Assembly (NCBI GenBank): GCA_036867785.1
Contig: CP145419.1
Span: 992,001 to 1,056,000 of the forward strand
Source of the DNA: Plasmodiophora brassicae
Lineage: Eukaryota
Direction of reading: 5' to 3'
Length of the DNA: 64,000 nucleotides
Shown here: positions 18,430 through 36,127 of the stretch, piece after piece
Position numbering within the stretch: position 1 is the first letter of the stretch
How the letters are laid out: every line of letters starts with the position of its first letter
The notes under the pieces: generated by a model
Seen by the model: only the letters and a program-made list of their open reading frames with translations
Databases searched by the model: none
What the model was told of the DNA's origin: nothing
Translations under genes and position numbers: made by a program

Positions 18430-20161
18430 TGTCGATGCGCATCGCAGCGGTGGTGGTGACAATGCTTGTCGTGGCGCAGGCGAACGTGTGCCGGTGGTAC
18501 CCGGGGAGTTGCAAGATGCAGGCCTGTAGCGTGTCGATCGTGCTGGATTCTCTGCCCATCACCTCCATCGACGCGTCCTGGTGGTCGCCCTCGTACGCGT
18601 CGATCATCACCAGCGTGTAGGCGTGTGTCAATCCAGTGGCCCCACTTCGTCTAACGTGTTTCCTATACAAAGGACCATCACGAATAACCCGTCGTTGACG
18701 AGCATCTCTGGATCTGCTTTCTCATCGCTGTCGAACTTGGTGACCCTGTATGTCGAGCCATACCGAAAACGGAGGCAGACGCTGATGGTGCCTGACAGCG
18801 ATCTACACGGGAACGCACTGCAGAGCCTACCATCGACGTCGTTCAGCGGTCTGACGCTGCTAACATCACTGTACGTAACGTTCCCGGACACGTCGCCGGC
18901 CACCAACGTCTGACAGACGTTAAAGGATGATTCAAGGGAATTACGCGACGTCGTTACCGCAAGCAATCTTCTCGCCGCTGACCAGTACTGTATCCATAAC
19001 GTACGCAAACGTTCTCCGGATCTGGAACCGTGATTAACTGGTTGCTCGGTCGCATCGGACAGGCTCGACCCAATGTCGAGCGGCACGAACGGCCAGCCGA
19101 CCGCGCACCTGCAGTGCCTGCCCAAGAAACCTTCCAAGGCGACCTACCTGTCAACCTCGAAACCGGCACCGAATTTCGCAAGCATGCCTCTGTGCCCAAT
19201 CGGTGGCATCACAACGTCCAAGTCCCGGTCGAGGCGTCCAGTGTCGACCCGCAAACCGACCACGTTGACCGGCAAACGTGTAACGAAACAGGCGACCGCT
19301 GTCAAGCGAACGTCGACGAAAAGGAGCACACGTGTAACGAAACAGGCGACTGCTGTCAAACGCACGTCAACGAAAAGGAGCGCAAGGTCGTCCAGCAGGG
19401 CTCGACTTGGCGTCGGCGTCACCCGTTCGCGTTCCAATCGTCGGGTGACGACACGAATGCCCAGCACCAGATCCAAACCACCTGCGAAGCGCACCACCAC
19501 GACGCCTGGCAAGAAGGCGACGACTGTCGTGGCAAAGCGGGTGACTGTTTTGAAACGGGCGTCGACGAAACCAGTCGGCGGTCACACGTCCAGCAAGGTT
19601 CCACCCGTTGGCCCGCACCCACCGACGGCACTTGCAACATCGGTCAAGACACCCGCGCCGACGTCGATAGGATCCACAGATACGCGCCCAGCGCCCCAAA
19701 TATCGTCGTCGAAAAGCCACCAGCAGGTGCCGCCGGTGACGCACGCTAGGACGATTCGTCGTACCATCGTACAACCCCCGCCCTCGCAACGTCAAACAAG
19801 TCATCCCGGCATCGGAGGCACAAAGACCGATGCGACGACGACGTTATCGGCCACTCCCCCGGCGTTGGTCGCCGTCGGTGCCGGGATCGTTGTCGTAAGC
19901 GTAATCGTGGCCGTCATCGCATGCCTTCGCCTTCGGTACGTCGCCGAGGGCCACCGTCGGAGGAAGAACATGACCATGTTCGCCGACAATATGGACGGCC
20001 GGCAGAACCCCGCTGCCACCAGCGAACCAACGCACCCGTCGCCGATCCACGATGCCAGCCCGGAGGCAATGCAGGATCCCGACACGTACAGGCATTCCAG
20101 CGTCATGTACGCTATCCCAGACGCGTTCAAAGTTCCCCAGTTCTTCCGCCCCGCGAAATAA
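18430..20161 (+). CDS. Type-I membrane LRR protein A (SP, LRRs, K/R/T-rich stalk, TM)
   Basis: SP MSMRIAAVVVTMLVVAQA; CRWYPGSC cap; single-LRR exons (LDLHGNALQSLPSTSFSGLTLLTSL); TM ALVAVGAGIVVVSVIVAVIACL; 54-bp repeat x2 near 19275-19383. Confidence 0.8.
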
Positions 20162-20296
20162 CGGTCAACGCTGTTCGGCTGGCGCTCCTTCACATAAACC
20201 CCCGATTGAGGGTCGCCACAACCGGCACGGGTCGTTTCACTGTTGGGCTTACGCGCACACATGCGCGTGCCAGGCAATGATTCATCATTGTCGAAA

Positions 20297-20956
20297 ATGT
20301 CCAGCATGATTGCTGTCGTGTCGCTGTTGCTGATCGTCGGGTGCTGCGCCGACTGCGGGTCGCTGGTCGTGAACAACTTCACGACGGAGACGCTGACGAA
20401 GAACGCGTTGGGCGAGCTGTCGGGCGAAGACGGGACGGCGCAGGCGGTCAGCATCCAGAGCGAGTACGGTCTCGTGATACAGACGGATGGCGCTCGCCAG
20501 ATGGCGTGGTACACCGACGTGAACGTGTCGTGCACGAACGTCACCGAGCAGCACGTGGACACGCTCCAGGTGACGTGGTCGGCCAGCTCCCTGACGAACG
20601 TCATCATCAACGCGCTGTGGGCCCCGGACGACGCCACGTGCATCAGTCGGACCTGGCAACGCGCCTCGCTGACCGATTCCGGCGGCCTGGGATCCAACTT
20701 CAAGACGTCGGTGCTGTCGCTGACGCCCGCTCAGATGCAACGCTTCCACGCCATCGAGGTCGTTGTCGCCCAGGGGCAGCCGGCCACGTCGCTGGTCATC
20801 AGCAAAGTCGCCCTGGTCGAGAGCCCGGCCTCTTGTTCCGCCCGAAACGCGGGTAAAGGAGGTGCCGCCGGTCGTAACGCTGCCACGATGTCGACCGTGA
20901 GCTCCGTCGGCATCTTCGTCGTGACCGTCGCCATCGCCGTCATCTTCACAAACTAA
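20297..20956 (+). CDS. Secreted, likely GPI- or tail-anchored surface protein
   Basis: SP MSSMIAVVSLLLIVGCCA; small-residue linker and terminal hydrophobic VGIFVVTVAIAVIFTN; intronless. Confidence 0.75.
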   Translation: MSSMIAVVSLLLIVGCCADCGSLVVNNFTTETLTKNALGELSGEDGTAQAVSIQSEYGLVIQTDGARQMAWYTDVNVSCTNVTEQHVDTLQVTWSASSLTNVIINALWAPDDATCISRTWQRASLTDSGGLGSNFKTSVLSLTPAQMQRFHAIEVVVAQGQPATSLVISKVALVESPASCSARNAGKGGAAGRNAATMSTVSSVGIFVVTVAIAVIFTN

Positions 20957-21180: not shown

Positions 21181-22151
21181 ATGTGGACGATCGGTGCATG
21201 GGCTGTCGCCGTGTTCTCCTTGCGGGGCATCGCTGCAACGGCGCCGGCGCCTTGTAGCAGCTGCGTTATGAACGTGTCGACCGGCGCGTGCGGGGGTCCA
21301 TCCAACAACTATCAAAGCTGTACGAGGTCGTTTCGGCACTGGGTAGACGGTCTAATGATCCACTGGCCAGGCCCGGTTGGCGAATATTGCAGTGAATATG
21401 GATTGTAGGTTTTCGTCGACTGCCCTTTGCCATTGACGGTTAATTAACGGCGACGGTCCATAGGTGTGGGAACGGGTCCTTGTACTGTAATACGGAATCT
21501 CTGTGCCCAATAGCAATCGCAGCACCCGCATGCCCAGCAAAGAGGCTCCGGTCTGCCACGATCGGTCCAACTCCAGTGCTATCACGTGCGCCTGCTCCAG
21601 CAACTTTACGTACTCGGGCAGCTGCGAAATCGTCGCGAACGTTGTCTCGAACATTAATCGTGGCCCCGCTGTCCAAGCGCACCATGTCGACGTCACGCTC
21701 TGCTCCTGTTCCCTTATACGTCCAGCGAAGCTCGGCAGCTAGAGGAACCAGCCAGCTGGGCATGCACTCGACTTCCGTTGGACTGCCGCTGGCGGTTGAG
21801 CGGCCTGCGCAGGGGCGACATTCTGCTGGGTCCACTAACGCATCGACATCACTGTACTCGGTGACGGCTTGGACGGGACCTGTCTGGACGATACTATTGT
21901 TGGTCATTGTCCTCGTTGCGGGCGTGATGTTCGCAATCACGTACGTAATTTGTAAGATAGAATTCGGCGTACGGCAGCTGCAGCGAGCCGCGGCGGCGAC
22001 ACTGGAAACCGTTCCGGTGTCTGCCATGGAGCAGCAGTTCAGCAACGCAATGGATCGCACCTCATATATCAAGGCAGGCCCACACAATGCCCGCCAGCAC
22101 CACCCCCGCTACTTCTCCCCGAACAACGACGTATATGAACACAGTACATAG
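21181..22151 (+). CDS. Hevein/CBM18-like domain type-I membrane protein A (degenerate), 3 exons
   Basis: Exons 21181-21319, 21371-21404, 21464-22151 give SP + CGGPSNNYQSCPVGEYCSEYGLCGNGSLYC + S/T stalk + TM + YIKAGPHN tail. Confidence 0.82.
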
Positions 22152-22349
22152 TGCGTTCGGTCTACCTGAGCGTACGATCATTCAGCAGACGGGCTGGCTG
22201 GATACGAGTGGCATTTACGGGCAACTCTGCGAAGGTTCGCGCGTCGAGAGTTGTGAGGTGCGCCGGTCCTACCTGTCGCAGTGCGCAGTCTTTAGCACTA
22301 ACCGTGATCTGCCCGACGGGCGCACCCCCCCTCCGGAAAGTGCGATTTT

Positions 22350-22380
22350 TGGCAACGGCCCGCTCCGCGGGCCGTTGCCA
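22350..22380. repeat. Perfect 14-bp inverted repeat, 3-nt loop
   Basis: tggcaacggcccgc-tcc-gcgggccgttgcca. Confidence 0.9.
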
Positions 22381-22425
22381 CTCGCCACGCCGTAGCCGCC
22401 GCTTGACGACGGCAGGGCCACGGAC

Positions 22426-22582
22426 CGCGCGTGTCAACTACGCTTCGTCACGTTACGCTCGCTTCGCTTCGCGTCCCGTTCCTCGCGTTGCAGCGACGAT
22501 CGCGCGTGTCAACTACGCTTCGTCACGTTACGCTCGCTTCGCTTCGCGTCCCGTTCCTCGCGTTGCAGCGACGACCGCGCGT
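22426..22582. repeat. 75-bp tandem repeat, 2 near-identical copies
   Basis: cgcgcgtgtcaactacgcttcgtcacgttacg... at 22426 and 22501. Confidence 0.92.
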
Positions 22583-23052
22583 CGCGAAACACGGCCCCGC
22601 GCTGCGACGTCCTGTCACATGGCGGCTCCTGTCGTGCACCGTAACGATACACGGATGCATGCCACAGTCACGTCCCCCGCACCCTGATCCGACCAGCCCA
22701 CAACATGACGCCGTCACGAGGCGACCCGTCGACGCCCGCAAGCCAAGCGGAAACAGTAAACAGCGACGGTACCTTGCGTTCGATACTGCCGTCGTGTCGC
22801 TCATGGCGGTCGCGTAGCAGCGGCCGCAGTGGACACGGGAACGGTCAGACGTTCGCAATCGGCACGCGAATCGACTCTCGACGGAATGCGGACGTCCGAT
22901 CACCAGTCGCTAAGTTGTGCGCTGGCGCTCGCCTGGACGGTCTTGGACGTTTCCGGTCACCACCCTTGTGATGTGCCACCGGCAACAACAGCATTGGGCG
23001 CAGGCCTGAGCCTCCGTCCTCCTGTGTTGCCATGAAGTGGCGTCAACGCACC

Positions 23053-23124
23053 GCAAGTCCACTACTGTATCATCCGACGTGCGGGTCACTGCAAGTCCTG
23101 TACTGTATCATCCGACGTGCGGGT
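23053..23124. repeat. 34-bp direct repeat (38-bp period) just downstream of the recombinase stop codon
   Basis: gcaagtcc(ac/tg)tactgtatcatccgacgtgcgggt at 23053 and 23091. Confidence 0.9.
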
Positions 23125-23151
23125 GGTAAGTGGCGCACGACAGCCTCCTTC

Positions 23152-26100
23152 TTACAGGAGATGGCGTATCGTCCGGCGCAAGCTCTGGTAGTTTGTCGTG
23201 CACTTCCGGCGCTTGGCCCCCGCATGGCCCGGCTTGGCGCTTTGACGCCGAACCCATTGCACCAGGGCACCTTCCGCCTTCTGGAAATACATATTGACCT
23301 GCCGGGTCCATTCGGGCAGCGTCGCAGCGCCGGCGAGCGCCGGCGTTAGTGTCGGCGGCGGCACCATGCCGTCCGGCGTAAACCGCTGCGTCGACAGCAG
23401 ATCCCGCCAGAAACAGGCATCCGCGACACGCCGGCGACGGCTCTCCTCGCAGGCGGTCAGGTCGACCCCGTCCAGGTCGTTCACGAACGCGTACGTGGCT
23501 GCCTTCCACGCCGGCCACGACGGGTGCAATACAGCATCGATGCCATTGTCGCGGTCGTCACGGGTGCCTGACGTCGACACGGCTGCTGCGGCGTCGACCG
23601 TCTCAGACGGCGACGACGACGTCGTCGAGCATCTCGTGACGGGATCGGCGGTGGCGAGATCGGGCGCATGGGTGGCGGCGAGCTGGCCAGGTAGGTTGCC
23701 CTTAGCGGTCGCCATCTGGAGGGCGGTCGCGATGCTGTCCATCTTCTCGTCCAGCGCAGCGACCTTGGCCTCCAGTGATTCCATGAACGCAGTGACCGCC
23801 GGCGACAACGCCTGAACAGGTTCTGCCGCGCCCGATGATGATGATGATGATGATGGTGCCGGAGCGGCCCCGGTTGATTGTCGGAAGACGTGCGGGTTGT
23901 CCGAGCGGTGACTGGCAACGACCTCGGCTGACCAGCGGTCGACCGCGTCGACCGCTATACCGAGCTGGACGCAGACGTCGCGGACGCGCGCGACCATCAA
24001 ATGCTCCGCCCCTGTTGTCTCGCTTCGGAGGCCCTTCACGAACGCCCACCGACTCAGAAGCGCCGCTGTCAGGACGCGGACGACAGGCTTGGAAAGCGTC
24101 GGCGCCCTTGCAAAGAGCTGATCGCCGAACCGGACCCGCTGGGCCGTATCGTGATGGGCGGCGCCGCTGCTGATGCCGAGCGATGGAGCCACGATTTTCG
24201 GGTCGCCCGCCTTGGGGCAGTCGTGTCCCGCCGTCGTGCATGCGCCAATGTAGTCGGCGAACACGTCGTTGGACAACAGGTAATGTTCGTCGGCGGTGCG
24301 CGCGCGGGCCCAGCCGCCCCGGTACGCCCGAGCAGTGGACGACGCGCCGTACTGCTCCATGTCGACAGCCGCCGAGTGCCGGAACATGTGAGTCTTGGCC
24401 GTGTCCGGCGTCAGCAACGGGCCGAGCCCATCGGAGCCGGCCTGCTGGGCGTACCGCTTGAGCAGCGTCCCCACCGGTCCCGATCCTATCTGGGAGTCCA
24501 CGAGCGCGTCGCTAGCCGACCCGTTGACGGCGCACTGGAGCGCCGTCGCCAGCACCACGTCAAGCTCTGCGGTCAGGTCGAATACCGACCTGTGCTCCCG
24601 CGTGACGTTCGTCTACAAGTGAGAGTGTACAGGCTCGCTCAGAGCGCGTCGGGACGTCCTGCGGCGTCGGTTTACCTTGGGCCGGTAGATATCAACGGCG
24701 ATGCCACGGGCGAACGCATCGAACCGAATTCCGCTCAAGTGGACGGATGCGAGGTCGCTGATGCGGGTACAGAAATGCCGAGCCCACACGACGACGGCAT
24801 ACAAAGCGACGGACGACGACGTGTTCTCTCTGCATAATGCTCTGCGTCAGCCACGTCGTCGCAGCAGCAGGGGTCGACCGCGGTACAGCCACGTACAACA
24901 GCAGATGGCGGACGAAGCGCGCGTAAAGAGACCGATCCAGGGCCTGTGCCGGCTTGTGGTAGGGGCCTGCCAGGGACGTGGCGGGTCCCGGTGCGTTAGT
25001 TGATCACATGTGGCATCGGCGGCGGCACGAGGTCGCCTACGATTCTGAGCGTGCGCACGCGCCGTCAGGACCGCCCGAATCCTGCTTGTGATCTTGGTCA
25101 TGGCATCGCCGCGCTCGAGCGATACGACCTTCTCTCCGTTGAAGAAGTCGCGGGACAGCACCGCACGAGCCCCATGCAGGTACGCGATTGCCGTCGTGTC
25201 GGCCTTAATCGACGGCACATGGACTAGCATGTACTCGGCGAGGTTGGCCGCGAAGGTCGGCGTTATCAGCTCGCCCTGCGTCTTGCCCTGCAGGATCAGC
25301 TCCCGCAGGCGAGCAGGCGTCGCGAACGGGATGGCGTGCTCCGTGGCGTACGTGGCCACGTAGTCGAACAGCACCGAGGCACCCCTCCCGTTATGCTTGC
25401 GCGCGCTCACCGACGACCGGTGTAGTGTCAACGCGTTCCCCTGGCGCGTCAAGGAATCGGTCAGCACGAAGGCGCACCGGCGGCGCTGGCGAACGCTGGC
25501 GTACGGTGATCGCGGGACCTGACGGCGACGAAACGATCAGCGGATGCGGAGACGCTGTCGGCAGAGCATGCAGGAAGGACGACGACGGTGACAGTACAGG
25601 CGCACCCGCTGACGACGTCGGCGACGATGTACCGGCTGCCTGCTCCTGATGTAGCGAAACACGGCGTGGCGGTGGTCAGCAGGCGAATCGAACAGATTGG
25701 CCAGCCACGGGCGCGTACAGTTACGACGATGGCAGGCAACACGAGAGGCAACGGCACCGATGTCCCACCATCCTGCGACGCAGACAAGGGAGGCACCGGC
25801 GCAGACGTGCTCGACGATGCCGCCGCAGGCAGAGTCGCCAGTGACACCGACGACTCGATTTGGGCGATTGTCGACGACGTCAGGCTGCAGGTCTGCAGAG
25901 ACACGTAGTGAGATCGGGCGCCACAATGTAGAGCCAGCCTGGGCGTACCGAGACGACGATGGCGGGCAGCGCGCCAGGCGGCGGCGGCAATATTACTGAC
26001 GACGTCGGCGACGAAGGCGCCGCTAGCAACGATGCCGATGAGGGCGACGGCGTGGACGGCCTCGCTGGTGCAGGCAAAGTTGACGTGGACGGACCCTCTG

Positions 26101-26362
26101 GCGCAGGACTTGATGATGACGCCGGCGAGCGATCTGGGGCTGACGATGGCAGTGGATGGACCTGAAACGGAGCGACATGATGGTGGTCAGCAGACGCGAA
26201 CCGGCACGCACGGCAGCACAGGCGCAGCACCGATGTCGCGGGCAGAAGGACCGCGGCCGTCGCCGGCGGCCGGACAGGAGACGGACCGCGAATGAACCGG
26301 GGTTGGCGACGACGACTAACGACAGCCGGAGCTGGCACAGACGGCTGCTTCGGCGCTGGCGC

Positions 26363-26399
<37 letters not shown>

Positions 26400-26410
26400 C
26401 CTGGGACCAT
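23152..26410 (-). mobile_element. Crypton-like tyrosine recombinase gene (intron-containing); 5' start and element ends uncertain
   Basis: Removing introns 24967-25040, 24842-24896 and 24613-24675 joins the ORFs in frame: FCTRISDL (R), RPKTN (K), KTHMFRH (HxxR), GGW (W), EHYL (Y). No reverse transcriptase nearby. Confidence 0.75.
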
Positions 26411-26725
26411 GGCGGATACCGAACTGCAGCTCCTGACAGTGCACACACGCCCGGTCAGACATGGCGACGGGGTATCCGCCTGGCGACTGCAATTTGTAAC
26501 ACCCTGGCGGGACGGGGGCGCCAACGGGTCCGAAAACGCATTGGCACACTGGCGCGCGTGGCCCTGGGTGTAACGGGGGTTGGGGGGGGGGGGGGGGGGG
26601 GGGCTGACTGCTGACGTCTCCCTCTCCACTTACGCAGTGAACTGCAACTGCGCCGTTCGGGCAGTTCTGGGGCAGCTGCGGGGCGGCTGATCGGTTATAT
26701 ACCAGTGTCTGCAGCCACCGACGTT

Positions 26726-27692
26726 ATGGGCGGTGCGAACATCCCCAGTGCTCTGCTCGCGATCGGTCTCACAGCTGGCATCGTCGGTGCCCTTACGCTA
26801 CGGTCCAGCGACGCCGTTGACCATACGGTCAACACCTCGGCGGCCGGCGAGCACTCCGATGTCCTGAAATACATCGTCGATGATCTGGGCGAGAGGGACG
26901 ACCCCGTCGTCCTGCCCGTTATTGCCGATGACGAGCTTGCGCTGATCGTCGAGTTTATTACCGCAACCGTAGCCCATGAGGTATTCGCAGGCAGGTTGGT
27001 CGTCCCCGGTACACGAGTCTGTAAACACGTCTTCCGTATAGGGCGATCAGGGCGCCCGGTGGGCCAGGGATAGACTCAACCAGACAGGGCTCGCGACGCA
27101 ATGTCGACTTCTCGTCGCCGCCAACTTCCTCGATATGCACTCGCTTATGAGCGCAGTCATGTCGCTGAAGCGCACGTGGCGAGATATTGCCGCGATACGC
27201 GACATGAAGTGCATGCACCCGCAGGTCTTCCCGATCGTCGTGGATTACGCTCCATGCATTATAAGGCTTGTTCAGATCGCTGCCTCGCAGATACAGGTGT
27301 CGATCGTCAACTGGATTCGCGATCGTCTCATAACCGGAGGCAATGTCACTGTAATCAATAACCAACGCTGGGATAAGACTGACCCCCTGTTGAACTGGGC
27401 AGCATGGAATAACGAGGAGCTTGTCGTCCGATTCCTGTTGAGCGCCCCAGGGATCGACGTCAACGCACGTAATTCCTTTGGCTGGACACCTTTGCACTGT
27501 GCCGCCGCTTATGGATATCAAGACATCGTCGCATTGCTATTAAGCGCTCCCGACGTCGACGTCGATGCGCGAGACGATCTCCAGATGACGCCGCTGATGA
27601 CTGCAGGTCCCCATCGTGGCATCGGCAACCTGCTCGTTAAGGCACGCCGGCAGACGCTGGGGCGTTATCTCATGCGATGGAGGACCAACTGA
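26726..27692 (+). CDS. Secreted SKP1/BTB-like + ankyrin repeat protein (candidate effector), 2 exons
   Basis: SP MGGANIPSALLAIGLTAGIVGA; LTLRSSD...VVLPVI...LALIVEF; spliced LLVAANFLDM (SKP1 signature); ankyrins LLNWAAWNN, GWTPLHCAAAYG, MTPLMTA. Confidence 0.85.
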
Positions 27693-27903
27693 TACAAAGC
27701 ACGCCTATCTGCGTTAGTACTCTTCCATCATCCGCGTATCGACCGGTGATCGGAAGGGGCCAATAACGAGGTTGTACTTGTAGGCGGCGACTGAATCATC
27801 AGGTTAGAAAGGCGTTAGGGGAAGATACGACAGGGTCGGTTTCCCGAGATACGCGGTGTACTTCTGAGATTTATGGTGTGGCTGCGTGCCGACGGCGAAT
27901 TTA

Positions 27904-28859
27904 ATGGGGACGGCCAGCTGGGTCGCCGTGGGCAATAGCCTGTCGGTACTGCTGTGTTGCGTCGTGGTGGTCGGGGCGGCACCGGTGCCCTGCAGTAACC
28001 CTGTCGTGAATACCACCACGGGAGAGTGTGGCGGCCAGAACCACAACTACCAAAGCTGTACGTGCGTTTGGACGTTCCGTTCTCCCCTGAAGTGCTTCGT
28101 GATATTCACGCACTTGACCAGGCGAACCTGGCAAATGCTGCAGCCAATACGGCTAGTACGTCGTAATCGCATCACGGTTTGCACACGTTCGTAGCATTGA
28201 CCGATACGTACTGCAGCTGTGGAAACACCACCACATATTGCAACGCGATGTCGATGTGCCCAGCAGCAACCGCACCCCCGACGATATCAGCACCAACGTT
28301 TACGTCGTCACTGCCCGCAGCGCCGACCCCCAAGTCACCCAATTCTCGACCGAGCACGCCGCCAAGACGGCGGACATCGCAGACGAACCCGTCGCCGAAA
28401 CCGCCGCCTTCTCCAGCTCCTCGAACGCCTCCGCAATCCCCAACGGCGCCGATCGCGAAACGCGTCACGACCCATGTGGCGCCGCTACCATCCCTTCCGA
28501 CGGCGCCTCCCCAGAGGCAACAGCCAGCATCGGCGGACGCGCCGCCGACGTGGTACGCCCAGACGTTGTGGGACGTGCCAGTCTGGATCGTTGTCGTCAC
28601 CATCGTGCTCACGTTCGTCGCGATCGCCCTAGTCTGCAAGATAGAACCGTGCCTGCGACCTCAGCAACAGCAGGTGCCGACCTACCCACCAACCGGACGG
28701 GCGGCCGCAATACCCATCAACCCGTCCTGGGCACCAGTGCGCTCGCCTGTCCATCTACAGTTTGTCCCAGGTGCCAGCGGCGGCGTGCAGAGCCGATCCA
28801 TGCAGTACATTCGAGCCGGTCCGCACAACGTTCCACAGAACCAAACTGCCTACTTCTAG
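27904..28859 (+). CDS. Hevein/CBM18 chitin-binding type-I membrane protein B, 3 exons
   Basis: Exons 27904-28057, 28122-28155, 28217-28859 give SP + CGGQNHNYQSCEPGKCCSQYGYCGNTTTYC + P/T stalk + TM + YIRAGPHN tail. Confidence 0.87.
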
Positions 28860-28947: not shown

Positions 28948-29361
28948 TCATTCGATGGCGATGTAGTTGGAGGTCGGCGTGCCTTCCCGCTTAGGAATGT
29001 CGACGAACAGCATGCCGTTCTCGTACTTGGCGGTGACCTGATCCGCGTTGATGTTCTTCGGCAGGCGGATCGAACGCGACGTCTGGCCGTAGATGCGTTC
29101 CGAGAAGTGGACATGCTCCTTCTCGCCGACCTTCTCCTCCTTGCGTTCGGCCGACACCGTCAGGACCCCGTTCTCAATCTTCAGCTTGACGTCATCCTTC
29201 GACGTCCCCGGCGTTTCAACCGTCAGCGCGTACGACTTGTCCTTCTCCTTGAACTCCATCTTCAGCACGGGCGCCTGTACCGCGTCGCCCGGCTGCCGTG
29301 GCATCAGGCGGCGCTCGAACGGCGTCGTGTCGAACAGCGAGTCCCACAGCTGCAGCGACAT
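28948..29361 (-). CDS. Small heat-shock protein (HSP20/alpha-crystallin domain)
   Basis: ETPGTSKDDVKLKIENGVLTVSAERK...ERIYGQTSRSIRLP...AKYENGMLFVDIPK. Confidence 0.95.
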   Translation of the reverse strand: MSLQLWDSLFDTTPFERRLMPRQPGDAVQAPVLKMEFKEKDKSYALTVETPGTSKDDVKLKIENGVLTVSAERKEEKVGEKEHVHFSERIYGQTSRSIRLPKNINADQVTAKYENGMLFVDIPKREGTPTSNYIAIE

Positions 29362-29468
29362 TGGTGTTGGTTGATGCTCTTCTTCCTTCTCCCGCTTCTC
29401 CTCGATCACTTTGAAGTTTTTCTGTTTGACCGTGCAGTCACCTGATCCGCCCCATAACAACAACCGCG

Positions 29469-29673
29469 GAACATTCCCAGGAACGTTCTTGCGGGGTGTG
29501 ACTCGGAACATTCTCTGCGAACATTCCCACGCAGATTTTTGCTCGGAATGTTCCCCGGACAGCGCGAGCTGCATTCCGGGGGCGCGGCGTTCTTGCGGGG
29601 GCGTGACTCGGAACATTCTGATTTCTGTGCGAACGTCCCCCCCCCCCCCCCCAGTTTTTTGCTCGGAATGTTC
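29469..29673. promoter_or_regulatory. Heat-shock element array (7 perfect GAAnnTTC) in the divergent HSP20/GRHPR promoter
   Basis: GAAnnTTC at 29469, 29481, 29506, 29519, 29546, 29611, 29666. Confidence 0.85.
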
Positions 29674-29740
29674 CCGGACTGCGCGAGCTGCATCCCGGGG
29701 GCCGCGCATGTCCGGTGCGGGGTCCGCACGTCGTTTCGGC

Positions 29741-31004
29741 ATGCGCGTGCTGGTCACGCGCCGCCTGCCGCCCGGCGCGCACGGCCGTCTCGTCGGCTTG
29801 GCGGCGTCGCAAGGGTCCACGTCGTGTCGTCGCACTGTCGCGGGACCCCGAAAATAATGGTCGACGCCGACGTGTAGGTTCGAGGTCGACCTGTGGGATC
29901 ACGACGCGCCCGCGATCCCACGCGGTCAGCTTCTGGAACGCGTCCGCGGGTGCCACGGCGCGCTCGTCCTGCTGACCGACCGGGTCGACGAGGAACTCCT
30001 CGACGCGGCGGGTACGTGGCGTGGGCCCAGGAGCCGTTAGCGGATCCCAGGCTGACCAAATTGCCACAGGGCCGCAACTGGCTGTCGTATCGACCATGTC
30101 GGTCGGGTTCGACCACATCGACATCGGCAGTTGCCGGCGGCGTGCCATCCGAATCGGGACGACGCCGGACGTGCTGACGGACGCGACCGCCGACCTGACC
30201 GTCGGCCTCCTCATCGCCGTCCTTCGCCGATTCCAACCCGCCATGCGAGCGGCCCGTGACGGAAGCGTACGTGCCGCCTGATGATGATGATGATGACGTC
30301 GTGTCGCGGACGAATCACTGTGTTGTACGCCAATAGTGGGGGATCTGGAGCCCCACCTGGATGTGCGGGTCCGACCTGCGAGGTAAAACGATCGGCCTGA
30401 TCGGCATGGGACGGATCGGCGCCGCCGTCGCTGACCGCCTGGCTCCATTCAAGACAGGTGCGTACGGGGGACCTCGTTTGCGTCCCGTTCCCGCTAACGG
30501 TCGTCTGTTCAGGTCCGATTCAGTATTGTAGCAGAAGCGAGAAGCGGGCCCTCCCGCATCGGTTCGTGTCGTTGGAGGACCTCCTGCGCACGTCCGACAT
30601 TGTCATCGTGACCTGCGCGCTGTCGGACGACACGCGCGCCCTGATCACGATGGCCCAGCTGACGCTGATGAAGCGGACGGCGTTCCTGATCAACACGGCT
30701 CGCGGGCCGATCGTGAACGCGCACGATCTGGCGCTGGCTCTGCGTCAGGGTGTCATTGCGGGCGCGGGCCTCGACGTCACCGACCCGGAGCCGATCCGTC
30801 CGGATGACCCTCTGCTCTCGCTCGACAACTGCCTAATCCTTCCCCATGGTCGGTCGCACGGCTGGATGACAGCGTCGCGCTGACCGACCTCGCGTAGTCG
30901 GGAGCGCCACCATGGAGACTCGGGAGGCCATGGCGAACCTGGCGATCGATAACCTGTTCGCGGCGCTGCAAGGCAGACCGATGCCGGCCGAGCTGCGCCC
31001 CTGA
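29741..31004 (+). CDS. GRHPR: Glyoxylate/hydroxypyruvate reductase (D-2-hydroxyacid dehydrogenase), multi-exon
   Basis: MRVLVTRRLP, MSVGFDHID, TPDVLTDATAD, GLIGMGRIG, INTARG, GLDVTDPEP, LPH. Confidence 0.9.
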
Positions 31005-33339: not shown

Positions 33340-35328
33340 TCACACCGCCTGCGAGCTGTCCGCCTTGATGCCTTCCTGGCTGATCGGCAGCGGCAGGATC
33401 TTCTTGTCGTCGTCGCCCGCCGGTTTCAGGGGCGCGTCGGAGTCGTTCTTGTCGGAGAGGTCGCGGCGCGGCACGGCGACGGGCTGCGGCGCCGCTGGGC
33501 CGGATCGGCGCACGGGCTGCGCCTGCACGGGCGCATCGCTGCTGAGCTTGGCGACGGGGCCCTTGTCGCCGGCGGCCAGGACCTCGACCAGGGCCCTGTC
33601 GTTGTCGGCGGCGGCCCCGTCCTTCCTGGCGGCGGCGGCGCGCGGCCCGCCCCACGTGCGCACGTTGAACGTCATCATGCCGTAGACCTGGAACGAGGCC
33701 GCCATGATCGGCAGGCAGACCAGGACGATCGGGTAGAACCAGGTGATCTTGCGCCGGCCGATCTTCCACCCGACAAAGATGATGAACATCCAGATCGGGC
33801 CGAAGATGCCGACCGCGTACCCGTACGAGTACCAGGTGCCCTGGCCCTGCAGGATCTGCAGGAAGAACACGTAGATGAACAGCGGGCCGTTCTGCAGAGC
33901 CGACAGGCCGATCAGGCAGTTCAGCCCGGGGAACTGGCGCCAGATGATCGGCGACGTCAGCTGGTAGATCTCGTTGGTCACCGTCCCCAGGTACCAGCGG
34001 CGGCGCTGCTTCATCAGCGAGCGGAACGTCTCGCAGCCCTCCGTCTTGCACCGGGCCGACGGGCAGAACCCGATGCGGTACTTCTCCGGGCGCTTCTCCA
34101 TGATCAGGTGCGTCAGGTAGCGGTCCTCGCCCAGGTGCGTCCGGTTGAAGTCGAACGTGTCGACGGCGTCCATGTTGCCAAAGTAGACGGGCGCGACGCT
34201 GGCCAGCGTCTCGAACCGGACCATGGTCAGGGCGCCCGGCAGGCACGACACCGACCCGAGATAGTCCTCCGAGTTCCGCTGCAGCATCTGCGACTCGATG
34301 TACTCGGTGTCCTGCAGCACCTTCAGGAAGCTGTACGTGCCGGCCGTCTTGCACGTGATCAGCCCGGTCAGCGCCTCGCGGTAGATGCCCGGCTGCCGGT
34401 TCATGTCGTAGATGAAGTTGGGGATGGCGTGCACCTCGAGCTCGATGTCCGAGTCGATGAACAGCAGGAGCGGCTTCGTCTCCTGGTTCTTGTACAGGCT
34501 GGACAGGTAGCGGAAGGCGCACATCTGCGCGTGCCGCTTGCCGCCGTGCTCGAACCGGCACGGCGTCACCTTCAGGTTCCGGTACATGATGTCGCCGATG
34601 ACGGGGAACTCGCGCGCTTCGCTGCTGACGCCGAGCTCGTCGAGGCCCTCGCTGGTCGACAGCTTCTCGTAGTCGATCTTGGTCTTGTTCGTCATCAGGC
34701 AGTAGATGACGGATCGGTACAGCGTCGACACCTCGTCCGAGTCGAACGCCAGCACGAGGTGCAGGCGGTTCAGCGGGTACTTTGTCTTGGTGACCGAGTT
34801 GATCGCGATCATCAGCGTCTCGATCGGCTCGTTGTAGATGGGCATCACGACGGTGACGTACGGGTTCGTCTTCTTCTTCCTGCCCTCCGAGAGCGCCCGC
34901 AGGACCTCGTCCTCGCTGGGCGCCCGCCGCCACGAGTTGACGGCGCAGCCGACCTTGAACCAGCTGACGGCGACGAGCGCCAGCGGCTCCAGCATGAGGA
35001 TGATGGTCAGCGTCGCGTCCAGGGTGCCCCAGGGGAACGCCCAGAACGCGTGACGGAAGTTCAGCGTCAGGATCAGCAGGCTGTAGACGCCGACGTTGTA
35101 GCAGGCGTACAGGATCAGGAAGGTGCCGGCGACGAACCGCGTCAGGAACGGGTGGTCCTGGTTCTTCTCGCCGTAGATGACGACGTTGCCGAGCGTGACG
35201 ACGTACGTGACGAAGTAGCTGAACGCGTGCAGGAACGCGATCAGCAGGAAGAACCAGACGATGGCGTAGACGATGTAGGGGCCGTACGCCCTGAAGAACT
35301 GCTCGACGGCCTCGACGAACGTCGCCAT
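33340..35328 (-). CDS. CHS: Chitin synthase (GT2), intronless, 662 aa
   Basis: GGKR, FIDSD, CLPG, LGEDRYLT, QRRRW, RTWGGPR; N- and C-terminal TM helices. Confidence 0.93.
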   Translation of the reverse strand: MATFVEAVEQFFRAYGPYIVYAIVWFFLLIAFLHAFSYFVTYVVTLGNVVIYGEKNQDHPFLTRFVAGTFLILYACYNVGVYSLLILTLNFRHAFWAFPWGTLDATLTIILMLEPLALVAVSWFKVGCAVNSWRRAPSEDEVLRALSEGRKKKTNPYVTVVMPIYNEPIETLMIAINSVTKTKYPLNRLHLVLAFDSDEVSTLYRSVIYCLMTNKTKIDYEKLSTSEGLDELGVSSEAREFPVIGDIMYRNLKVTPCRFEHGGKRHAQMCAFRYLSSLYKNQETKPLLLFIDSDIELEVHAIPNFIYDMNRQPGIYREALTGLITCKTAGTYSFLKVLQDTEYIESQMLQRNSEDYLGSVSCLPGALTMVRFETLASVAPVYFGNMDAVDTFDFNRTHLGEDRYLTHLIMEKRPEKYRIGFCPSARCKTEGCETFRSLMKQRRRWYLGTVTNEIYQLTSPIIWRQFPGLNCLIGLSALQNGPLFIYVFFLQILQGQGTWYSYGYAVGIFGPIWMFIIFVGWKIGRRKITWFYPIVLVCLPIMAASFQVYGMMTFNVRTWGGPRAAAARKDGAAADNDRALVEVLAAGDKGPVAKLSSDAPVQAQPVRRSGPAAPQPVAVPRRDLSDKNDSDAPLKPAGDDDKKILPLPISQEGIKADSSQAV

Positions 35329-35365
35329 GGCCGGACGCGCCCCGGTGGTGGTGCTCGCGACACCT

Positions 35366-36127
35366 TCACAGCACGACGACCAGGCGTGGTTGTTGGTTCT
35401 GCCTGCCCGCAGGTGCGGTCAACGGGCGCCGGCCCATGGGCGATGGCACGCGCCGCACCGGTGACGCAACCTTCTTCGCCCGGAGAGACGAGCGACGTCT
35501 GCGATCCCCGGGGGCCTTCCGTTCGCTACCAGACAGAGAGGGCGTCTCGTTTACTAGGTGGCGAGCGGCCCGATTCCGCAGATTTCGGCGCCATCGGGCT
35601 GAAATCGAATTGCATGTCGCACGACGACGCGGGGCACGTGCGGCAGGAACGGACGCGTGACCGGGAAATCCCCTACAACGAGGGCGGGCGTTGGGTACAA
35701 GCGCACGCCGCTGATGACCGACGACGAGACGTACCCGTTTGCGGATGCAGACGACAGAGTCGGCCGGGTAGGTGTCGTTGCCGGGCGGCGCCTGCGTCAG
35801 CAGGGCGCGATTGATGACCGGTCGGGACGCGTCGCGGTTACGGAACGAGACGACGATCGCGCAGCCGCACGTCAGGGTACGATCGCACGACCAGACGGCG
35901 TCGTCGTCGCGCAGCACGTTACCGGGGTCGAACGGCAGCGACGTGGTCGCCGACGCCGTCGCGTTCGCCGTCGACACCTCGCCGTCGGCGTCGAAGAAGC
36001 GGACCCGTGCGACGCTCCAGACGGGGCCGGTCGGGCCCATCGGCGTGAACGTGAACACGGTCGGGCCCGGCCCGGTCCCGCGCGCTATCGCAGCCAGGCC
36101 GACGACGAGCAACGACGCCCAGCGCAT
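35366..36127 (-). CDS. Small secreted protein; 3' structure uncertain
   Basis: SP MRWASLLVVGLAAIARG followed by a beta-rich Cys-containing region; coding signal becomes unclear below ~35730. Confidence 0.5.
   Translation of the reverse strand: MRWASLLVVGLAAIARGTGPGPTVFTFTPMGPTGPVWSVARVRFFDADGEVSTANATASATTSLPFDPGNVLRDDDAVWSCDRTLTCGCAIVVSFRNRDASRPVINRALLTQAPPGNDTYPADSVVCIRKRVRLVVGHQRRALVPNARPRCRGFPGHASVPAARAPRRRATCNSISARWRRNLRNRAARHLVNETPSLSGSERKAPGDRRRRSSLRAKKVASPVRRVPSPMGRRPLTAPAGRQNQQPRLVVVL

Follow-up and report, generated by a model that had tools for sequence, protein, structure and literature searches.

Two predicted membrane-anchored CBM18 proteins with a conserved cytoplasmic tail motif in Plasmodiophora brassicae: candidates for a tether or sensor at the parasite's own wall

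In Plasmodiophora brassicae, the parasite that causes clubroot in brassicas, a 64-kb genome window (the whole stretch of DNA that was analysed, within which all coordinates below are positions) carries two genes, here termed copy A and copy B, that each encode a chitin-binding module of the hevein type (CBM18). The window has a eukaryotic composition with about 60% G+C, and both genes lie on its + strand. Each is split into three exons with a middle exon of only 34 nt, and the spliced models encode proteins of 286 aa (copy A) and 276 aa (copy B). Judging by their alignments, the two are old, diverged paralogs of a P. brassicae-specific family with at least three members. The predicted plan of this family is that of a type I membrane glycoprotein, with a signal peptide, one CBM18 head, a low-complexity stalk of about 100 aa, a single transmembrane (TM) segment and a tail of 66-74 aa. 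Conserved residues flank the predicted membrane segment on both sides (Y..T.W..PVW outside and CK[IV]E..R..Q inside), and a putative short linear motif, Y[IF]xAGPHN(x5-9)YF, is found in the terminal part of the tail. A preliminary description of the locus had proposed the same membrane-anchored architecture, and its elements are all recovered in the gene models, whose features are as follows.

21181-21319, + strand: copy A exon 1, with the start codon, the signal peptide, the pre-hevein stretch APxPCS..V.N.[ST]TG and the start of the hevein module
21289-21506, + strand: copy A degenerate hevein/CBM18 module, Cys37-Cys72, cut by both introns
21371-21404, + strand: copy A micro-exon, 34 nt, encoding (C)PVGEYCSEYG(L); acceptor ..ccag, donor gtaggt
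21464-22151, + strand: copy A exon 3, with the end of the hevein module (CGNGSLYCNTESLCP), a 114-aa stalk, the TM segment, the cytoplasmic tail and the stop codon
21882-21962, + strand: copy A predicted TM segment (residues 198-220) and juxtamembrane CKIE (221-224); the 19-aa hydropathy window reaches 2.95 at residue 198
22065-22115, + strand: copy A tail motif YIKAGPHNARQHHPRYF, located by motif scan and A/B alignment
27904-28057, + strand: copy B exon 1, with the start codon, the signal peptide, the pre-hevein stretch and the start of the hevein module; equal to residues 1-51 of SPQ99053.1
28024-28259, + strand: copy B canonical hevein/CBM18 module, residues 41-77, cut by both introns
28122-28155, + strand: copy B micro-exon, 34 nt, encoding (C)EPGKCCSQYG(Y); acceptor ..ccag, donor gtacgt
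28217-28859, + strand: copy B exon 3, with the end of the hevein module, a 96-aa stalk, the TM segment, the tail and the stop codon
28581-28646, + strand: copy B predicted TM segment (residues 185-202) and juxtamembrane CKIE (203-206); hydropathy 3.01 at residue 185
28806-28856, + strand: copy B tail motif YIRAGPHNVPQNQTAYF, at the C-terminal end of the protein, located by motif scan and A/B alignment

The division into three exons had been noticed before, and the gene models agree with it. All four introns begin with GT and end with AG, and the A and B introns occupy identical codon positions and phases. Their lengths are 51 and 59 nt in copy A and 64 and 61 nt in copy B; the mean intron length reported for P. 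brassicae is 60 bp (Schwelm 2015, PMC4471660). Exon 1 of copy A ends at NYQS and the first base of a Cys codon, with gtacga as the donor. The preliminary description had also stated that the domain is invisible among the open reading frames (ORFs) of this DNA. Indeed, none of the four unspliced exon translations that were tested matches PF00187 (Chitin_bind_1), whereas the spliced copy B protein passes this model at residues 41-77, its 36.7 bits exceeding the gathering score of 27.8. Omission of the 34-nt exon causes a frameshift in both genes, after which copy A stops at 62 aa and copy B continues in the wrong frame. Exon 3 thereby loses its reading frame, and neither the membrane segment nor the tail is encoded. 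Thus, according to the predicted models, only inclusion of the micro-exon joins the signal peptide and the domain to the membrane segment and the tail.

The copy B model is letter-for-letter equal to a public protein of P. brassicae (SPQ99053.1 / UniRef100_A0A3P3YFW0) that is named 'Chitin-binding type-1 domain-containing protein', and this public model includes the 34-nt exon. In a search of 5.8 billion proteins with the translation of B exon 3, it was the single match among 756 candidates (276 aa, 100% identity). The annotation behind SPQ99053.1 is reported to have been made by EuGene with strand-specific RNA-seq among the evidence (bioRxiv 10.1101/335406), and the public model is accordingly indirect support for the micro-exon, short of proof. 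For copy A, the only public protein is a 129-aa C-terminal ORF fragment (P0002), found among 2184 candidates of 125-399 aa; a word-indexed search with A exon 3 over candidates of these lengths found no full-length model. The same kind of search with full-length copy B gave two matches among 3528 candidates. Altogether, the word-indexed searches returned the family's own proteins and one unrelated two-module hevein protein, and nothing more. The locus had been called a hidden pair. Copy A can indeed be called hidden, but copy B cannot, as it is already annotated as a type-1 chitin-binding protein. Likewise, there are two genes in the window, where six-frame regular-expression scans revealed no micro-exons or hevein halves beyond those of A and B, but at least one further paralog exists elsewhere in the genome.

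Two further observations concern the 5' portions of these genes. Intron 1 of copy A (21320-21370, 51 nt) is open in frame, and its retention would place 17 extra residues inside the hevein module. An out-of-frame ATG precedes the start of copy B by 31 nt, and the short frame that it opens (27873-27939) overlaps the start codon. This frame is a possible upstream ORF if the copy B transcript starts further upstream.

The hevein core has an eight-Cys spacing, and neither copy has it in full. Copy B carries seven of the eight canonical residues (C42, 52, 57, 58, 64, 71 and 77), lacks the eighth, and has an extra upstream C30. Copy A carries six of the eight and has gained Cys28 and Cys81. The core of copy B reads CCSQYGYCG, and we agree with the preliminary description that this copy is canonical, its PF00187 score being above the cut-off. 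The equivalent stretch of copy A reads YCSEYGLCG, in which Tyr52 replaces the third canonical Cys and Leu58 the second aromatic residue, exactly the two losses that had been pointed out. In hevein itself, the sugar is contacted by Ser19, Trp21, Trp23 and Tyr30. All four positions have equivalents in copy B (S59, Y61, Y63 and Y70), and three of the four do in copy A (S54, Y56 and Y65, with L58 at the remaining site). On the basis of these residues, copy B would be a competent chitin binder. Copy A, minus one disulfide Cys and one stacking aromatic residue, would bind more weakly or would bind something else. The fourth disulfide is likewise reported missing in PbChiB1, 2 and 4, which are chitin-binding proteins of the same organism (bioRxiv 10.1101/2020.12.23.423615).

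An independent two-module hevein protein (P0008, with a PF00187 score of its own of 72.4 bits) served as a common reference for the two heads. Copy B matches it with 47.1 bits and the ectodomain of copy A with 12.4 bits (E 1.2e-5 at Z=1), a score that none of 200 shuffles reached. Copy A therefore has a recognisable but degenerate hevein module. The N-terminal parts of A and B match each other with 70.6 bits. Five distinct sequences in the PDB match copy B at E<=0.01 (E 2.2e-4 to 9.6e-3), all within residues 41-77 and around a CCSQ[YW]G[YW]CG core. The nearest are the hevein domains of pokeweed lectin C/D (1ulk, 1uha and 1uln; E 2.2e-4), and the others are vaccatide (5xdi) and morintide (5wuz). 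These E-values are modest, and the plant proteins, multi-domain lectins or peptides, differ from copies A and B in being soluble and in lacking a membrane anchor. Between the signal peptide and the module, both copies conserve a pre-hevein stretch that includes one Cys and an N-x-S/T sequon. Such sequons are present at two aligned ectodomain sites (N31 and N61 in A; N36 and N66 in B), the second of which lies within the module (CGN[GT][ST]), and this arrangement fits a predicted lumenal or extracellular position of the head.

Hydropathy and sequence predict a type I single-pass topology for both proteins, with a signal peptide at the N-terminus, one internal hydrophobic helix and a hydrophilic tail. 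The AlphaFold model of copy B has helices at residues 4-24 and 182-205, the second with a predicted local distance difference test (pLDDT) score of 75-82, and hevein strands at 57-72. The hydrophobic N-terminus of copy A aligns with the N-terminus of copy B that this model predicts to be helical. The 114-aa stalk of copy A is rich in Ala, Ser, Arg and Thr, and the 96-aa stalk of copy B consists of 30% Pro, 15% Thr and 12% Ser. In copy A, PVW is encoded at 21879 and CKIE at 21951-21962; in copy B, CKIE is encoded at 28635-28646. The Cys at this juxtamembrane position may be palmitoylated. The tail of A measures 66 aa and that of B 74 aa, with a pLDDT below 50 for the latter. Both PVW-TM-CKIE and YI[K/R]AGPHN, which were said to be retained in the two genes, occur once per gene and nowhere else in the six frames of the window.

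For the search for relatives, a profile of exon 3 of A and B was run exhaustively against 1,835,955,588 representative proteins at E<=0.001. With the full protein as query, multi-hevein proteins would have swamped the results; the choice of exon 3 lowers sensitivity for distant orthologs. Three proteins were returned, all of which trace to P. brassicae: copy B, the 129-aa fragment of copy A, and P0004 (98 aa, 49.3 bits). The 90% cluster of P0004 includes XXQ33780.1 (P0005), a P. brassicae protein of 163 aa that we regard as the third paralog, C. It carries WYAQTLWTVPVW, a TM segment, CKVE and, at its C-terminus, MQYFQAGPHNVAAQVRPSATYF. The preliminary description had named lack of conservation of the motif in homologs as a possible refutation, and the motif recurs in this paralog. 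A function in export from the endoplasmic reticulum is possible for the terminal YF of copies B and C. The search found no relatives outside P. brassicae, with a query in which A and B match each other at 40.6 bits and a library whose coverage of other phytomyxids is unknown. XXQ33780.1 is also publicly named 'Chitin-binding type-1 domain-containing protein' despite having no PF00187 match. The model may be N-terminally truncated, with hevein exons, including a probable micro-exon, missed by gene prediction.

At full length, A and B align from end to end with 90.7 bits (E 1.3e-20 at Z = 1.84e9), much more than chance would give. The invariant blocks of the three-way alignment are Y..T.W..PVW, CK[IV]E..R..Q, QF and S..Y[IF]xAGPHN..Q..YF. 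Conservation between A and B is selective, as had been claimed, and is distributed along the proteins in the following manner.

Pre-hevein stretch and hevein module: 58% A/B identity
Stalk: 24% A/B identity
Tail linker: 20% A/B identity
Tail motif (last 19 aligned tail residues): 58% A/B identity

Different codons specify 19 of the 30 head residues and 7 of the 11 tail-motif residues that are identical in A and B. The tail motif has been kept through synonymous codon changes and is therefore under protein-level selection. As far as codons can tell, the similarity of A and B is old and maintained at the protein level, and is the product of neither recent duplication nor gene conversion. The same codon counts bear on the alternative that copy A is a duplicate in decay or without function, and that only copy B and the third paralog matter. 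The losses in its binding site, its low score against P0008 relative to that of copy B, the lowest third-position G+C content (0.61) and the lack of a full-length public model found for it all speak for decay. However, the reading frame, all four splice signals, the signal peptide, the TM segment and the tail motif of copy A are intact, and its identical residues in both head and tail motif have been held through different codons. We consider decay of copy A to be decidedly improbable.

That the tail motif was retained despite synonymous changes points to a binding partner in the cytosol and speaks against a mask that is simply secreted. To this extent the earlier interpretation of the tail stands, but the signalling or endocytosis that it proposed is a guess. 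A YxxPhi sorting signal has a bulky hydrophobic residue at Y+3, and NPxY denotes Asn-Pro-x-Tyr. The tails of the three paralogs read Y-I-K-A, Y-I-R-A and Y-F-Q-A, with Ala at Y+3 and hence no YxxPhi signal, and NPxY is absent from all three. Pfam searches gave no match to kinase, LysM or WSC (PF01822) domains at E<=1. Matches to FxsA, SCIMP and Collectrin (A, B) and to RCR and Claudin_2 (XXQ33780.1) were far below the cut-offs and were dismissed as driven by the TM segment. A Foldseek comparison of the copy B AlphaFold model with the PDB produced three matches at E<=10, none at E<=0.001 and none to hevein, the model being too poor to inform. In the ESM Atlas, the best resemblance of the tail is 0.83 to a MUC1 fragment, followed by stannin, a syndecan-like protein and glycophorin C; that of the whole protein is 0.81 to an ascomycete CBM18 cluster. 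All are below the 0.9 level taken as a lead, and the look-alikes (0.76-0.83) are generic type I glycoproteins at chance level.

These results were used to evaluate the proposal that the proteins are receptors for chitin or chito-oligomers, acting as sensors or scavengers that signal or are endocytosed through the YIxAGPHN..YF tail. The architecture is receptor-like, and the tail motif is present in all three paralogs and under selection at the protein level. Plant chitin receptors of the CEBiP / CERK1 type have a LysM ectodomain with a kinase or a glycosylphosphatidylinositol (GPI) anchor. They resemble copies A and B in having a membrane-bound chitin-binding ectodomain, and differ in their LysM module and in the kinase or GPI anchor, none of which was found in these proteins. 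A closer parallel is a transcript of the rhizarian Orciraptor agilis that encodes a signal peptide, CBM18 and a C-terminal TM segment, and that its authors are reported to have likened to plant LysM receptors (bioRxiv 10.1101/2021.12.30.474559). However, as described, that protein is dominated by LysM, with five CBM50 modules and one CBM18. It was not among the relatives recovered by our profile search of 1.84 billion proteins. Against a receptor stand the lack of any kinase or other signalling domain found in these proteins, the misfit of the Tyr context to YxxPhi and NPxY, and the purely generic resemblances in the ESM Atlas. Moreover, it is not obvious why a biotroph that is obligately intracellular should need to take up external chitin. 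On balance, a receptor role of this kind seems to us quite unlikely.

The layout of copies A and B has a functional counterpart in the Wsc1-3 and Mid2 proteins of fungi. Wsc and Mid2 proteins have a long Ser/Thr/Pro-rich stalk and a short tail in which small conserved motifs serve to recruit a partner in the cytosol. The Wsc sensors are described as residing in the plasma membrane, with a Cys-rich domain on the extracellular side, and as signalling through Rom2 (PMC9366716). The likeness is confined to function and general form, namely a Cys-rich sugar-binding head, a long stalk, a single TM segment and a short motif-bearing tail. Copies A and B differ in lacking a WSC domain, in having a CBM18 head and in carrying an unrelated tail motif. 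The chitin bound by such a head would be that of the parasite. Chitin is reported to make up 25% of the resting-spore wall (PMC4815078), and we take it that the parasite makes chitin solely for spore or cyst walls. In addition, the window contains an ORF with a chitin synthase domain 4.5 kb downstream of copy B (33343-35418, - strand; PF03142 82 bits, PF13632 57.8 bits). The 25.5-Mb P. brassicae genome is reported to have 13 chitin synthase genes (Schwelm 2015, PMC4471660), which gives an expectation of about 0.03 per 64-kb window.

Because the layout resembles that of Wsc and Mid2, because parasite chitin belongs to the spore or cyst wall, and because a chitin synthase gene is located 4.5 kb away, we favour, if only tentatively, a role at the interface of the plasma membrane with the parasite's own chitin wall, as a tether or sensor. 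In this mechanism, the head would bind chitin of the parasite's resting-spore or cyst wall, and the extended, probably glycosylated stalk would span the inner wall. The tail motif would recruit a cytosolic partner. The protein would thereby tether the wall, report its state to the cell, or both, as a functional analogue of fungal Wsc and Mid2 with a different carbohydrate-binding head. A more specific version of this idea holds that these proteins constitute a wall-integrity or wall-assembly sensor family of the plasmodiophorids' own, convergent with Wsc and Mid2 and composed of a hevein head, a mucin-like spring and a lineage-specific tail motif, in which AGPHN..YF recruits the machinery that builds the very durable resting-spore wall, possibly the pathway of the neighbouring chitin synthase. 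In this specific form we consider the idea unlikely.

Several points weigh against a tether or sensor. As this eukaryote has no operons, synteny with a single chitin synthase gene carries little weight. Scans of the window pieces and of copy B assign the tail to no Pfam family, nor does it contain a known motif for signalling or sorting. When the tails are compared alone, A matches B with 23.3 bits, which is E 6.6 at library size, and there is no match in the reverse direction. A hevein head on paralog C is putative, as the 163-aa public model of this protein contains no PF00187 match. The AlphaFold model of copy B is poor overall, with a mean pLDDT of 51.9. The third-position G+C content of the two genes is modest (0.61 in A and 0.70 in B, versus 0.85-0.97 for the neighbouring HSP20 and chitin synthase genes), and their expression may be low. 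Finally, the CBM18 proteins already known from P. brassicae are secreted, immune-suppressing effectors, and an anchored decoy is therefore an equally natural expectation.

Such a decoy would be a membrane-tethered chitin mask that sequesters fragments, or coats nascent wall chitin against host chitinases and receptors, with the tail serving in trafficking or retention. Enrichment of CBM18 in plasmodiophorids is established, as are secreted CBM18 effectors (effectors: bioRxiv 10.1101/2020.12.23.423615). According to that report, PbChiB2 and PbChiB4 are secreted proteins with two CBM18 modules each that bind chitin and spores and damp chitin-triggered activation of mitogen-activated protein kinase. 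PbChiB1-4 share with copies A and B the organism, the chitin-binding module and the signal peptide and, in PbChiB1, 2 and 4, the missing fourth disulfide. Copy B also has all four sugar-contact residues, if the roles generally ascribed to these residues in hevein apply. However, the PbChiB proteins were chosen as secreted and apoplastic, and copies A and B combine one module with a stalk, a TM segment and a tail. PbChiB1, described as having one module, bears an Ala insertion in the consensus that is found in neither A nor B. Neither copy has the form of a secreted effector of the PbChiB type, as both are predicted to possess a TM helix and a 66-74-aa tail. Furthermore, a single module tied to a membrane would be a poor scavenger of diffusing oligomers, the conservation of three blocks, next to the membrane and behind it, suggests a role beyond anchoring, and copy A has kept its tail motif even though its binding site is weakened. 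We judge a tethered mask rather unlikely.

The kinship of the copy B head with pokeweed lectins, its closest solved relatives, speaks for a different alternative. The hevein domains of plant lectins bind N-acetylglucosamine (GlcNAc) oligomers and glycans. As adhesins, copies A and B would have GlcNAc-containing glycans of host or other surfaces as their ligands instead of the parasite's own chitin, and might act, for instance, when zoospores encyst or at the host-facing plasmodial membrane. A long mucin-like stalk is typical of adhesins, and the ORFs adjacent to copy A are surface-protein-like as well. Conversely, plant cell walls contain no chitin, and the chitin synthase neighbour points to the wall of the parasite itself. 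We regard an adhesin as very improbable.

The persistence of clubroot in soil rests on chitin-walled resting spores. So far, the CBM18 proteins of P. brassicae have figured in the literature solely as secreted effectors that conceal chitin from the plant. A second, cell-autonomous role for CBM18, in building or monitoring the parasite's own wall, is suggested by a predicted membrane-anchored subfamily whose cytosolic motif is under selection. In this respect AGPHN..YF is a defined short motif with which to find a first wall-signalling partner in Rhizaria. The literature examined yielded no description of a membrane-anchored CBM18 subfamily or of the AGPHN motif, the closest precedent being the O. 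agilis transcript, and no mention of SPQ99053, A0A3P3YFW0 or XXQ33780; the supplementary lists of Schwelm 2015 and other papers may include the genes. Copy A and the membrane-anchored architecture with its conserved tail motif therefore appear to be undescribed, and copy B is already annotated as CBM18. The absence of a full-length model for copy A and the domain-less 163-aa model for paralog C are possibly due to the split by the 34-nt micro-exon. As the hevein module is divided by a micro-exon, and the models of A and C are incomplete, counts of CBM18 genes in the genome may be too low.

The surroundings of the two genes contain several other features. Two ORFs directly upstream of copy A (19034-20158 and 20210-20953, both + strand) are surface-protein-like and belong to no Pfam family. 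One encodes a basic, mucin-like protein rich in Ser, Thr, Pro and Lys, with one TM segment and a tail of about 75 aa, and the other has a signal-peptide-like start and a hydrophobic C-terminal end with a GPI-like look. The region around copy A may be a small cluster of surface-protein genes. Between the two copies, an ORF at 23152-24612 (- strand), accompanied by more minus-strand ORFs to about 26400, matches the tyrosine-recombinase family PF00589 with 22.2 bits, below the cut-off of 27.1. This may be a Crypton-like mobile element. Tandem repeats are present on the low-coordinate side of the recombinase-like ORF, at 22423-22582 (75 bp x 2.1) and 23049-23124 (38 bp x 2).

Also between the copies are a perfect (CGA)x11 repeat at 26366-26399 and a run of 22 G at 26582-26603, either real or an assembly artefact. 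The gene just upstream of copy B (26615-27692, + strand) has a Skp1_POZ-like N-terminus (22.3 bits) and an Ank_2 match of 90.6 bits; ankyrin proteins are reported to be enriched in P. brassicae. Downstream of copy B, and convergent with it, is an HSP20 ORF (28948-29898, - strand; PF00011 77.7 bits), and the stop codons of the two genes are about 90 nt apart.

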